Positions 48,001 through 51,000 of a stretch of DNA of 64,000 nucleotides are shown in pieces (the first letter of the stretch is position 1; each line of letters opens with the position of its first letter). The stretch lies in the NCBI GenBank assembly GCA_049510745.1, contig JBEKYR010000006.1:126511-190510 (forward strand). Reading direction: 5' to 3'. The position numbers are program-made. The stretch comes from Verrucomicrobiota bacterium (GTDB lineage Bacteria > Verrucomicrobiota > Verrucomicrobiia > Limisphaerales > Palsa-1400).

Positions 48001-51000
48001 GTCAACGGCCACGAAAACTTCTGATGTGACGAGTATTTCAGCTTCGTCTTGAGGGCGCGGGGGCGTTACGCTCTGAGGGATGAAGATTTCGGTCATTGTG
48101 CCGGCGTTCAACGAGGAAAAACTCGTGGCCGCGACTCTGCGCAGCATCCAGGAGGCGGCCCGCAGTTTTACGCGGCGCGGCTGGGAGACGGAAATCATCG
48201 TTTGCGACAACAACTCGACGGACGCCACGGGGGACCTGGCGCGGGCGGCGGGCGCGCGGGTGGTCTTCGAGCCTGTCAATCAAATCGCGCGCGCCCGCAA
48301 CGCCGGCGCGGCGGCGGCCACCGGGGATTGGTTCATTTTTGTCGATGCCGACTCGCGGCCGACGGCGGAGTTGTTTGCGGAGGTGGCCGAAGAGGTTTGT
48401 CGCGGCGCCTGCCTGGCCGGCGGCTGCACGGTGCGGATGGATGAATGGCACTGGGCGGCGGCCGTCGGCACGGGCCTGTGGAACCTCGTCAGCCGGGTGA
48501 TGAAATGGGCGGCGGGGTCGTTTGTTTTTTGCGAGGCGGCGGCGTTTCGCAAGGCGGGGGGCTTCAGCCTGGAACTGTTCGCCTCGGAGGAGGTTGAACT
48601 GAGCCGGCGACTGAAGAAGCTGGCCAGGGAAAGCGGGAGGAAAATCGTCATTCTGCACCGGCATCCGCTCCTGACATCGGCGCGGAAAACGCGGCTCTAC
48701 TCGCGGGGCGACTGGCTGCGGTTTTTTGGAAAAGCGATTTTGAGCCCGCGGGCGACGATCACCAACCGGGAGGCGTGCGGGCCGTGGTACGACGGAAGGC
48801 GTTAGAGCGAGCCTGGCGGGGTGAGCTCACCGGCCGCCGCCCTTCCGATGCTTCCGAATTGCCCGCCGACGTGCCGGGCGGCGGCTCGGCGCAACGTCTG
48901 GTTCGGCATTTTCTTTGCCGTCGTAGTAAACATCGAATCCCGCTTCTATGCCGCGATCTCCCAGGTACTTCATGACCTGTGGTGGAAGTCCGAAACCTTT
49001 GTTCCGCGAGGGCATCGAAAGCCCCACGAAGAAATCAACCTTGTATTTCTTCGTGAGCCTCTTCCAAAGCCCAACGGCAGACGGCAGACGGCGAAGCACC
49101 AACATCATGGCCTCGGCACAATCCCACTCGTCCGTTTCCGTCGGCTTCAAGACGAGCCGCCACGCTCCGAATCTGGCAATTCGCATCACCGTGCCGTCTT
49201 CTCGGAATACAGGTTTTCCTTTTTGTTGCGCCTCGTCAGGCTGACAACCCAGGAGCTTGGTCACTTCATCCGGGACAAGATCTTCGGAACTGATCCGGAA
49301 GCTCACGCTGAACCAATCGATCGGGCCACCGAACCAAACGGTCCCCGGCGGCGCGCCCTTCGGGATGGCTGGCTTTGGCGCTTTCATGCCAACTTTGATT
49401 ATGCGACGGCCGGTTCGTTTATTGAAACACAAAAATCCAGTCCTTCCGGGGAAGCTGGGCAATTCTTGCGCTTTCGCCTATGTCAAAAAATCGTTCACTT
49501 TCGGAATGGAATTGACAGGATGAACAGGATGAACAGGATGCGGAAATGGAAGAACAACTAGATTTTATCCTGTAAATCCTGTTCATCCTGTCAAAACGTC
49601 TTTCTTGGTTGCGGCTGGCCGCGTTGCGCCTTATGCGTTTCGTCTGGTCAGCAAAGAGGAAAAAGATCAGGTCCAGCGAGTCCGGCGACCAGGGCTTATC
49701 GGTCCGGTGCCGGGGAATCGGGGGATGTTATGGAAGCAGGGACAACCCGCCGCAACGCGCCGACGCCGGCAACCCGCCCAAAAACACCAATTTCATAGGC
49801 CTGACCCTTTGGTGACCCTCTGCCCGGCGCGGCGGTTGTTGCGTGCAGCGTCTTGTTCGGCGAGGCGGCGCGCCAAAGCGCACCAGCAAACAACGCGCTG
49901 AGAAGGACTGAACCACCGACAAATGCGCCCCAAAGACACCACAACCCTGTGATACTCCAACCTGCCTTGATCTCGTCCGGCTCGCTCATCGACCGCGGAA
50001 CGACATGTGCAACTGATTCTGGATGATGCACCCAGTCGCCAACAAATATGAAATCCATCGTGCCTCCGTCAGTGCAATAGTAGAGCTTGCCGTTGACGAA
50101 CGCATCCCACGCCCAAACGCAGACGAATGCCATCAGGAGCATGCTCATGGCAAATACTCCAACGCTTCCCATTACTCTGGCGAGGCTACCGTGCATACGC
50201 CGAACTTTGATTATGCGACGGTTGGTTCGTTCATTAAAACACAAAAATCCAGTCCTTCCGGGGAAGCCGGGCAATTCTTGCGCTTTTGCCTATGTCAAAA
50301 AATCGTTCGCTTTCGGAAAGGAATTGACAGGATGAACAGGATGAACAGGATGCGGAAATGGAAGAACAAGAATTGACCGAAAAAATCATTGGCTGCACGA
50401 TGAAAGTTCATTCGGTGCTGGGACCGGGCTTTTTGGAGTCGGTTTACGCAAAGGCGTTGGCTCACGAGTTGCGCAAAGCCGGGCTGAAGGTCGAATGCGA
50501 GAAGCTGATCACGGTCAAATATGACGGCGTGGTGGTCGGCGACTTTTCCGCCGATAAGCTCGTGGCGGAGAAGGTCATGGTCGAAGAAAAAGCCATCCAA
50601 GCCCTCGCTCCGGCCCATGAAGCCCAGTTGGTGAATTACCTGACGGCGACCGGCATCGAGATCGGCCTGCTCCTGAACTTTGGCGCCCAACGTTTGGAGT
50701 TCAAACGCAAGTACCGGACCTATCGGGAAAAGGAACCCCCGAAAAACTTTATCCTGTAAATCCTGTTCATCCTGTCAAAACGTCTTTTTGGTTGCGGCTG
50801 GCCGCGCTGCGGCTTGGACAGCCTTTGTCCATGCGCCTGTTCCATAATCGGGTCAAAGTCAGGTCAAAGTTATGGCAAGGCCGGGGCGGACCGGCTATGT
50901 TAAAGCGAAACGGGAATTTATATGAATACGGGCGGCGCCAGCGGCATCATCCAGTTGCGACGGCTCTTGACGGAACGCTTTCCCCGCGCGCGAACGTGGG

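Follow-up and report, generated by a model that had tools for sequence, protein, structure and literature searches.

The window, a 64,000-nt stretch of a Verrucomicrobiota genome, holds a small cassette, here called the C6 cassette, in which a GxxExxY gene lies between two inverted arms (Table 1). The arms are 28 nt each, 93% complementary and built of three 9-nt units, as a preliminary description of this DNA had claimed for such genes, and the neighbours of the cassette are protein-coding genes, not 16S or 23S rRNA. The limits of the gene-bearing unit were drawn from L026, a copy with 90% identity that lies at an unrelated site and is without carrier ends; homology to another locus, L039, begins at 50310. 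T-runs flank the unit on both sides in C6 and in L026 and could be a short duplication. The unit at C6 encodes no transposase. Around it we observed the ends of a separate carrier: the putative degenerate left end does not match the left-end pattern used and was recognised by eye, while after the right end, or tail, host DNA 5' of imuA resumes at ~50809. A sigma-70 scan of 49300-50950 returned no promoter-like site, and Rfam returned no family at gathering level, nor anything near gathering scores, for 48700-51000. Folded as RNA, the unit forms one long stem (z -3.5). No empty allele of the site was present among the contigs of four runs, in which contigs break at repeats, and gene order at the C17 and C6 sites was not conserved in the relatives examined.

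A gene-less copy sits 812 nt upstream of the cassette. Its arms are identical to those of the C6 cassette, its loop retains the gene's first four codons (49546-49557), and it folds on both strands (z -7.4). The 167-nt repeat that links the two units consists of a leader of ~85 nt common to minus-strand passenger genes, followed by the carrier left end and the left arm. For the passenger ORF between the units, Atlas matches were all <0.9.

Table 1. Features of the cassette, its gene-less copy and their surroundings (window coordinates)
Feature	Position	Strand	Remarks
DUF4279 gene	48827..49387	-	adjoins gene-less unit
167-nt stretch	49391..49557	+	95% identical to 50203-50369
Carrier (150 nt)	49476..49625	+	gene-less derivative inside
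Gene-less hairpin	49512..49594	.	arms 49512-49539 and 49567-49594
Second carrier right end	49605..49625	+	one mismatch
Passenger ORF	49696..50196	-	between the two units; no Pfam/NCBIfam family
Degenerate left end of carrier	50288..50310	+	separate carrier around gene-bearing unit; by-eye likeness to other copies
Gene-bearing unit	50311..50789	+	arms, gene and short T-run-bounded ends; limits of DNA homology with L026
Left arm	50324..50351	+	three 9-nt units (ACAGGATGA type)
GxxExxY gene	50358..50759	+	133 aa; predicted PD-(D/E)XK nuclease of Cas4/RecB/lambda-exonuclease type
Right arm	50751..50778	-	overlaps the gene's stop codon
Carrier right end (tail)	50787..50808	+	TTGGTTGCGGC-n1-5-GCCGCGCT

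The GxxExxY protein and the arms around its gene

The gene product was assigned to TIGR04256/PF13366, with no Y1 family match in a profile search. The nearest folds to its model were Cas4 SSO0001, lambda exonuclease and a type IIG nuclease domain, and HUH families were absent among the listed fold matches. The core fold carries the E, D and E-x-K catalytic residues together with the QxxxY motif, a mark of the RecB family (E27, D66, E76, K78 and Q90-x3-Y94); E27, D66, E76 and K78 are conserved in 144, 143, 142 and 144 of 144 rows, respectively. By fold and by its intact predicted active site, the protein is a putative PD-(D/E)XK nuclease of Cas4/RecB type, and not an HUH enzyme. The dN/dS of the C6 gene against close homologues was 0.05-0.17, and across every unsaturated pair 0.04-0.29. 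A PDB sequence search with the GxxExxY profile gave one weak, unrelated match, and PADLOC gave no match to known defence proteins. Genes of the family are rare on plasmids (8/72,556 records), and none was found in 50,697 phage records. Joining of DNA is not known for PD-(D/E)XK nucleases of this kind.

GxxExxY genes and genes of a four-helix family were scored by an arm test that combined an inverted-repeat score of at least 12 with 7-10-nt periodicity. In this genome 9/10 such genes were positive (5/6 for the four-helix genes) against 16/4253 other, crudely called ORFs, in line with the 9/12 against 20/3105 claimed before. Arms in other genomes, previously put at 25/58 loci, proved more frequent: an inverted-repeat score of at least 12 was reached at 73/87 GxxExxY loci of a phylum sample (0/87 when shuffled) and at 21/27 four-helix loci (1/27 when shuffled). 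These loci were the best-scoring family matches (90 of 338 GxxExxY and 30 of 510 four-helix), so the sample favours intact genes. Among 78 close homologues the arms pointed inward in 31, outward in 14 and in the same direction in 14, were one-sided in 16 and were lacking in 3. Bracketing by inward arms, presented earlier as characteristic of these genes, is the commonest layout and not the rule. Conserved arm cores such as ACAG-RAT or CRC-NRA are each repeated about three times.

The proposal that both families form one class was not borne out. Arm grammars differ, with 7-8-nt units around four-helix genes and 8-10-nt units around GxxExxY genes, and 39/151 sampled genomes of the phylum carry four-helix genes without any GxxExxY match. 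GxxExxY genes were found in 76 and four-helix genes in 110 of the 151, and 71 of the 76 GxxExxY genomes also carry a four-helix gene. Arms enclose another gene type too, an ORF6N gene in L248. Four-helix genes carry arms yet encode no nuclease, a point that we count against the explanation favoured below; we know of no catalytic activity of their product. By a crude ORF test, GxxExxY cassettes were co-oriented with both neighbours at 40/100 scorable loci and fully opposed at 8. Pooled counts of G-T wobble favoured the antisense strand (53 v 32, 34 v 16, 32 v 27), and G-U pairs were not in excess on the sense strand; because sign tests by locus showed no significant bias (p 0.39 and 0.39), we draw no inference about the strand of action.

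At least five motif classes were mapped onto the GxxExxY protein tree (76 labelled rows; unlabelled rows were left out). The arm motif changed 12 times on this tree versus 43.3 times when shuffled, with 0/200 shuffles as low, and 49 times against 55 shuffled when set on host family. Motif-class sharing rose with protein identity, from 2% at 30-39% through 64% at 50-59% to 100% (30/30 pairs) at 70% or more, and 18/19 genomes with two or more labelled GxxExxY genes hold more than one class. The C6-type motif tracks its protein clade across eight phylum labels, and its density is 11.1 per kb beside the gene versus 0.46 further out, as counted at the same loci from which the motif was defined. These comparisons indicate that each GxxExxY clade has its own arm motif, following the protein tree and not the host. 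Such co-variation requires physical linkage only, not recognition.

Gene-less hairpins, carriers and site occupancy

With a stricter scan we detected 29 short periodic hairpins genome-wide, 7 of them on C1-C6, and none in each of three shuffles. The excess over shuffles reported earlier was thereby reproduced, while the counts of 48 and 11, which came from other thresholds, were not. The C6 unit occurs in both orientations in 17 clusters, consistent with the 15 hairpins first attributed to it; of 47 clusters of the C53 unit only 4 have both orientations, at odds with the 11 hairpins claimed. Prophage hairpins displayed on C23 sit at stop-to-start junctions. Four gene-less derivatives of the C6 unit (the copy upstream of the gene and three elsewhere) have different flanks, and because all retain the gene's first four codons we regard them as deletion derivatives. 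Judging from these sequences, hairpins without the gene arise by internal deletion of the unit and then multiply.

In this genome two separate carriers, each with ends of its own, contain most members of the two largest hairpin families: 12/17 C6-type hairpins have the conserved tail, and 10/18 of the C9 type are enclosed in a ~265-nt unit that has terminal inverted repeats of its own. That hairpin abundance here reflects the GxxExxY and four-helix proteins, as had been supposed, is not supported. The two carriers are unrelated, and the insertion point of one lies in the conserved arm core of the GxxExxY type. The tail lies near only 1/170 GxxExxY loci and is thus not part of the GxxExxY system; stand-alone C6-type hairpins without a tail exist in other genomes. 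By hand count, a GxxExxY gene is present in 17/18 of the genomes in which C6-type arrays abound on both strands, versus 76/151 overall, with a gene of the cognate clade (C6 query) in only 6/18. In G141, with 26 C6-type arrays, we found no cognate-clade gene, and in G183, with 19, not even a GxxExxY match. A strict full-hairpin pattern matched in only 4/151 genomes and was uninformative.

No autonomous partner of either carrier was found. Y1 transposases have seven matches in this genome, and a single reverse transcriptase is present. Y1 transposases gained no support as owners of the tail carrier, with no tail or left end at any of 30 loci taken from 63 Y1 matches in five tail-rich genomes. 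IS110 had no match in this 94%-complete genome, and carrier ends were not attached to any of 30 IS110 loci from relatives. Among 113 ORFs scanned beside tails (of 124 candidates), the single transposase was an IS110 at L336, which was rejected as tail owner: its left end begins ~65 nt inside, and, read by eye against the anatomy of IS621, its right end and its putative guide segments correspond to another palindromic target.

Regarding age, the cimA-valS and C9 (glnS) sites were empty in 5/5 relatives each, supporting the 4/5 and 3/5 claimed from relative sets that may differ from ours. The aroK-queG site, said to be empty in 5/5 relatives (again of a possibly different set), was empty in 3/5; in one the partner gene was absent from the retrieved stretch, and one, G024, of another genus, has an orthologous cassette. 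The dS of this cassette was 1.29, versus 1.40 for aroK and 0.82 for queG. It looks old and vertically inherited, which argues against the view that the cassettes are generally recent. This host-like dS, together with the rarity of the genes on plasmids and their absence from the phage records, suggests RAYT-like persistence. Near-identical cassettes occur at unrelated sites, and homologous sites are patchily occupied. GxxExxY genes persist at gene junctions of operons, are lost from them and reappear there.

Possible mechanism and rival explanations

The above findings suggested that GxxExxY genes and their arms form a partnership organised like RAYT/REPIN but with other chemistry, the nuclease being the putative cutter, an explanation for and against which we see the chances as evenly divided. 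The nuclease would recognise its cognate units as a hairpin, cruciform or single-stranded form and would cut at or near the unit core. Because the nuclease has no chemistry for strand transfer, the copying of arms, with or without the gene, would be completed by host repair (strand annealing or template switching), the tandem units supplying several microhomology registers. Such a route would explain the shuffled arm orientation, the chimaeric arms and the local tandem copies that include host DNA, as well as why no clear target duplication is seen. The four-helix (Avd/S23p-like) genes with 7-8-nt arms would form a system in parallel, with the ORF-bearing 23S rRNA intervening sequence as one instance of it, and much of the hairpin spread here would be secondary, hairpins having been picked up by two unrelated small carriers. 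A bolder version, which we hold tentatively and with more doubt than belief, has GxxExxY proteins drive a new and widespread class of mobile DNA: a minimal Cas4/RecB-like nuclease would read a periodic hairpin code specific to its clade and cut its core, host repair would copy the arms, gene-less derivatives would be the REPIN equivalent, ORF-bearing rRNA intervening sequences and bacterial heptamer repeats would stem from a parallel Avd-like system, and a second-level parasite would insert precisely at the core site of the nuclease.

We also considered that an unrelated transposase (Y1/HUH, IS110-type or other) acts in trans on the arms as its substrates or targets, the GxxExxY and four-helix genes being passengers or accessories and the hairpins spreading within other non-autonomous elements. 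The carriers that hold most hairpins of the two largest families, the arrays present without a cognate gene, the ORF6N gene enclosed by arms and the Y1 genes in this genome and in all five tail-rich relatives tested are consistent with such a helper. By eye, however, none of the seven Y1 matches here is flanked by C6-type arms, and the Y1 and IS110 loci (30 each) had no carrier ends attached; moreover, a passenger role leaves unexplained both the intact active site and a motif that tracks the GxxExxY tree, not the host, over deep divergence. We consider a helper in trans rather unlikely.

An improbable reading, in our judgement, is that of a domesticated or regulatory module, in which the protein binds or cuts its own arms (autoregulation, host benefit), the arms act on the transcript by excision of the RNase III type, like that of the 23S intervening sequence, and new copies come about via ordinary recombination and local duplication only. 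The mostly co-oriented cassettes, the single long stem of the unit as RNA, the excision of the Coxiella element by RNase III described in the text of PMC4990558 and the scarcity of the genes on plasmids and their absence from the phage records would fit it. On the other hand, near-identical units at unrelated sites and multi-copy derivatives require a dispersal route, sense-strand G-U pairs are not in excess, and no known defence protein was matched. The wobble result also counts against an RNA route, in which a host reverse transcriptase together with an Avd-like four-helix pentamer would copy a hairpin-closed transcript into DNA, the GxxExxY nuclease nicking the target. PF05635 resembles Avd of diversity-generating retroelements in the account of PMC10053308, the two families co-occur and the genome has one reverse transcriptase; yet co-occurrence across kin is not independent, the two arm grammars differ and no cassette shown includes a reverse transcriptase, leaving this route very improbable.

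If the nuclease partnership is true, two large families without an assigned function gain a role, and one small protein and a 28-nt arm could be used to test both the unexplained excess of 7-10-nt tandem repeats in bacterial genomes and where ORF-bearing 23S intervening sequences come from. With its natural specificity variants, this predicted nuclease of 133 residues would be a tractable system for periodic-hairpin recognition, and the carrier that inserts into the arm core points to a candidate cut site.

Comparison with known systems

The GxxExxY-arm class had no description in the literature searched, which takes in few subscription journals. For the four-helix tier a single case has been published, the 23S rRNA intervening sequence of Coxiella burnetii: the text of PMC4990558 describes an S23p/four-helix ORF, terminal inverted repeats and three tandem heptamers, calls the element selfish and cites the idea that the ORF serves mobility. 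The likeness, a PF05635/S23p ORF in inverted tandem-heptamer arms, extends to the four-helix tier only and not to the C6 gene; that element has been described in rRNA only and is excised by RNase III, whereas the cassettes here lie between protein-coding genes and the C6 gene encodes a predicted nuclease.

Other repeat families share some of the traits. TIRtrons/TIRYT and CGTC repeats (Di Nocera et al. 2013; PMC3733652), as outlined there, also comprise genes inside long inverted repeats and dispersed families, REPs nested in 'target palindromes' and repeat families without a dedicated transposase; TIRYTs are Y1 transposases and their repeats are not periodic, unlike the periodic arms and non-Y1 protein here. 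The heptamer repeats of Xanthomonas/Nostoc (PMC4692102) and the TAACTGA repeats of Beggiatoaceae (PMC4679880) are likewise intergenic 7-nt tandem arrays near stop or start codons, some in inverted pairs; in the sections available they are read as regulatory or G-quadruplex elements, without a link to four-helix or GxxExxY genes. The carriers resemble MITEs and IS110/IS621-type insertion into REP, being short non-coding units with fixed ends and a variable interior, of which one inserts into other repeats without clear duplication and the other has 10-bp terminal inverted repeats. They differ from those cases in that no autonomous partner was found, the sole IS110 near a tail having its own ends and target.

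The closest likeness is to RAYT/REPIN (REP doublets), as far as that system is set out in Bertels and Rainey 2011 (PMC3116915) and Bertels et al. 2017 (PMC5581495). Both have a distinct single gene per repeat class and several such genes per genome, repeats beside the gene in varying orientation, repeat mosaics, gene-less inverted hairpin doublets dispersed in extragenic space (here the 29 hairpins and the 17 C6-type clusters), gene-repeat co-evolution and a gene that is rare on plasmids. The REPIN-like organisation with non-HUH proteins that was originally suggested is upheld by the clade-specific motif, the gene-less derivatives, the patchy sites and the near-identical dispersed cassettes. 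The differences lie in the chemistry and the repeats: the RAYT is an HUH (Y1) tyrosine transposase and the protein here a PD-(D/E)XK nuclease by predicted fold; a REP is a short palindrome with a 5' tetranucleotide of GTAG type and the arms here are tandem 8-10-nt units; and the derivatives here come from internal deletion of the gene-bearing unit. The small nuclease gene with its clade-specific arms appears to be a counterpart, not described so far, of the partnership between REP repeats and their transposase, with GxxExxY as its putative mover.

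Arms around the GxxExxY and four-helix genes

The arm test was positive for 9 of the 10 GxxExxY (TIGR04256/PF13366) and four-helix (PF05635/S23p) genes of this genome, whereas 16 of the remaining 4253 ORFs, whose calling was crude, passed it; 29 short periodic hairpins were detected genome-wide against none in three shuffles. GxxExxY matches were found in 76, and four-helix matches in 110, of 151 genomes sampled evenly across the phylum. Inverted arms were present at 73 of the 87 GxxExxY loci with full flanks (best-scoring 90 of 338 fetched; shuffles 0) and at 21 of 27 such four-helix loci (best-scoring 30 of 510 fetched; shuffles 1). 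Of the 78 close homologues taken from GTDB, 55 passed the arm test; over all 78, the layout was inward in 31, outward in 14, same-direction in 14, one-sided in 16 and absent in 3. GxxExxY genes and their arms are thus a real, widespread gene-and-repeat partnership, the mechanism of which we infer below. The preliminary description had placed both families in one class; both are indeed arm-flanked, but their arm grammars differ, four-helix arms being mostly of period 7, and 39 genomes of the sample carry four-helix genes without GxxExxY.

Features of the window and of the second MITE-like family
Feature	Position	Strand or orientation	Description
GxxExxY gene	50358-50759	+	133 residues; TIGR04256, E 7e-41; PF13366
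Arms of GxxExxY gene	50324-50351 and 50751-50778	inverted	28 nt, 93% complementary, three 9-nt units each
Gene-less hairpin	49512-49594		812 nt upstream of gene; arm pair identical to the gene's; folding z -7.4
Carrier tails	50787-50808 and 49605-49625		conserved 22-nt right end of both window units; host DNA follows
Second MITE-like family, ~240-270 nt	C19:63247-63514, C26:44340-44607, C30:49503-49773, C44:4077-4341, C3:24669-24906		10-bp terminal inverted repeats

The loop of the window's gene-less hairpin retains the first four codons of the GxxExxY gene, as do three further gene-less copies, on contigs C5, C8 and C20. Judging from these codons, internal deletion within the gene-bearing unit produced the gene-less copies at the four places. 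The C5 copy has extra flanking DNA in common with the window copy, so that the independent contexts number at least three. A 90%-identical gene-bearing unit of another Verrucomicrobiota genome aligned over 50311-50789 only, with no common neighbour, which fixes the unit limits and places the unit at unrelated sites. No empty allele was found in contigs from two further peat runs, which covered the region in pieces at even depth. A second GxxExxY copy, roughly 90% identical, was seen in the same peat metagenomes (runs X2, X4 and X8, aligned to 50427-50738). Two minus-strand passenger genes (48827-49387 and 49696-50196) are each preceded by the same leader, and each appears to end in sequence like a truncated integron attC site. 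An imuA-like gene (family-scanned) and ORFs resembling imuB and dnaE2, a putative mutagenesis cassette, follow at 50922-56219.

Other arrangements were observed elsewhere. C6-type arms, the type of the window gene, enclose an ORF6N-domain gene (PF10543), not GxxExxY, in genome G069 (L248:794-1575), and gene-less, BIME-like long mosaics of several arm classes occur in G141 (L232-L243). An intact GxxExxY gene adjoins tandem truncated copies at C4:58350-59560, where the repeat unit takes in the end of cimA, and at loci L039 and L028. In a prophage tail region (C23:49500-56150), several stop-to-start junctions in a row carry AATCAGTG-type hairpins (four displayed), which suggests local hopping. 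A site that its flanking codons mark as the putative gyrB-gyrA junction is occupied by a bare heptamer hairpin in this genome (C2:195555-195674) and by a GxxExxY cassette in L046 and L047, two Chthoniobacterales.

The nuclease and its arm motif

The predicted model of the window protein (pLDDT 91) matched Cas4 SSO0001, lambda exonuclease and related nucleases in Foldseek (E 2e-4 to 1e-3); VIA-align gave Z 8.8 (rmsd 2.6, 94 residues) with the BpuSI nuclease domain and Z 8.6 (rmsd 5.0, 110 residues) with SSO0001. Residues E27, D66, E76, K78, Q90 and Y94 were conserved in 142-144 of 144 GxxExxY rows, and dN/dS was 0.04-0.29 across all unsaturated pairs. PDDEXK_3 is listed with function unknown and multiple transfers in the consulted part of a superfamily survey (PMC3424549). 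The C17 four-helix protein matched 2RLD, an uncharacterised five-chain structure, and PF05635 is described as similar to Avd in the section consulted of PMC10053308.

Five arm motif classes, defined from the very loci analysed, were mapped onto a tree built by maximum likelihood from 76 labelled GxxExxY proteins (phylum sample and this genome, with unlabelled or broken rows excluded), such trees being informed by only 117 columns. Motif class required 12 changes versus 43.3 when shuffled, with 0 of 200 shuffles as low, and host family required 49 versus 55 on the same tree. A common motif class was found in 2% of pairs at 30-39% identity, 64% at 50-59% and 30/30 at >=70%, and 18 of 19 genomes with at least two labelled genes held more than one class. 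The C6 class formed a single clade (100/98), which covers eight phylum labels in a larger quick tree, where MAG labels may include mis-binned contigs. Linkage alone can produce such a motif-clade pattern; that a short core has been kept across so deep a divergence hints at selection by recognition, though it is no proof of it.

At least three C6-type arrays on each strand were counted by hand in 18 of 151 genomes, some matches to the pattern coming from a neighbouring motif class. Of these 18, 17 had a GxxExxY gene and only 6 a cognate-clade gene by the C6 query, which identified 10 genomes in all; Fisher tests on this co-occurrence overstate it because kin are non-independent. The cognate gene was not found in G141, with 26 C6-type arrays, nor a GxxExxY family match in G183, with 19. 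Such arrays could be accounted for by gene loss, by copies missing from the assembly or by a helper acting in trans.

Insertion sites and the carrier layer

The cassettes had been described as recent insertions, which does not hold generally. The cimA-valS and glnS sites were both empty in 5/5 relatives; aroK-queG was empty in three of five, unreadable in one and occupied in one, from another genus. The cassette there is an orthologue (83% protein identity, arms rearranged), and its dS of 1.29 falls between the values of the neighbouring genes (1.40, 0.82). Most simply, an old insertion was retained in two genera and lost elsewhere, the alternative being one site used repeatedly. The gltX and C6 sites had no conserved gene order in the relatives examined.

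Tail copies numbered 43 in this genome at <=1 mismatch; the tail occurred in 17 of 41 related genomes and at least 122 metagenome stretches, preceded by many unrelated palindromes. Since it lay <=300 nt from 1/170 GxxExxY and 0/30 four-helix loci, and 100 tail loci contained neither gene, it marks a separate carrier. This carrier, seen in both window units, at the 43 places in this genome and at L252-L351, is 140-200 nt long and non-autonomous; its ends are constant, its palindromic cargo varies, and it inserts in the core of GxxExxY-type arms. A matching left end lay 138-206 nt upstream in 21 of the 43 copies. Excision in silico restored a periodic arm pairing with the upstream arm in 8/21 own, 7/11 relatives' and 3/24 metagenome copies (expected 0.5, 0.1 and 0.3), left ends having been chosen by a hand-made pattern, so that the metagenome set contains false ends. 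The best register gave zero duplication, a two-base shared core being also compatible; the site consists of pyrimidines followed by G-Y-G, which is complementary to the CRC core in GxxExxY arms. No driver was found among ORFs beside tails, IS110 loci and Y1 loci. One metagenome IS110 element (L336:340-1640) has a non-coding left part with segments matching its target and own ends; it sits in a palindrome of a kind presumably found beside DUF559 genes.

The tail is present on 12 of 17 C6-type hairpins of this genome, and 10 of 18 C9-type hairpins sit in a ~265-nt unit bounded by 10-bp terminal inverted repeats; this second MITE-like family encloses mostly AATGACG-type hairpins. Because many C6- and C9-type hairpins ride in carriers, hairpin counts here overstate the possible work of cognate proteins. 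Stand-alone hairpins exist, with no tail at L226-L251 of other genomes and a bare C9-type hairpin at C2:195555.

Possible mechanism and known systems

Arm motif is linked to nuclease clade, the nuclease is intact and under selection, units lie at unrelated sites, and deletion derivatives have multiplied. We give an even chance to an account in which the GxxExxY nuclease would recognise and cut its cognate arms, and host repair, aided by several pairing registers of the tandem units, would copy the arms with or without the gene. A helper transposase acting in trans, which could also explain arrays lacking a cognate gene, seems rather unlikely; we consider a domesticated or RNA-processing module improbable, and a reverse-transcriptase route more improbable still. 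The motif was tested against the protein tree, and the deletion derivatives and the carrier were tested, in the present analysis; the carrier layer had been missed in the preliminary description.

No description of the GxxExxY-plus-periodic-arm class was found in the literature searched, supplementary files being outside its scope. A survey reportedly names tandem inverted repeats beside Avd-like genes, and the newness of the four-helix tier is therefore provisional. One published case of that tier, as far as the consulted sections of the paper go, is the Coxiella 23S intervening sequence (PMC4990558), which has terminal inverted repeats, three heptamers in tandem and an S23p ORF; an earlier suggestion that this ORF has a role in mobility is also cited there. 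The parts consulted of PMC4692102 and PMC4679880 describe heptamer repeats with no mention of four-helix or GxxExxY genes, and sections of two further papers treat nested REPs and TIRtrons (PMC3733652) and Y1 subclasses (PMC6006769).

Matches to the C6 protein were found in 8 of 72,556 plasmid records, and a set of 50,697 phage records yielded none. RAYTs are single-copy and mostly vertically inherited according to the part consulted of PMC5581495, and in this rarity and in persistence GxxExxY genes appear closer to them than to insertion sequences. Compared with the sections consulted of PMC3116915, the GxxExxY system seems to work like the RAYT/REPIN partnership of Y1 transposase and REP doublets, but falls outside it in both enzyme and repeat type.
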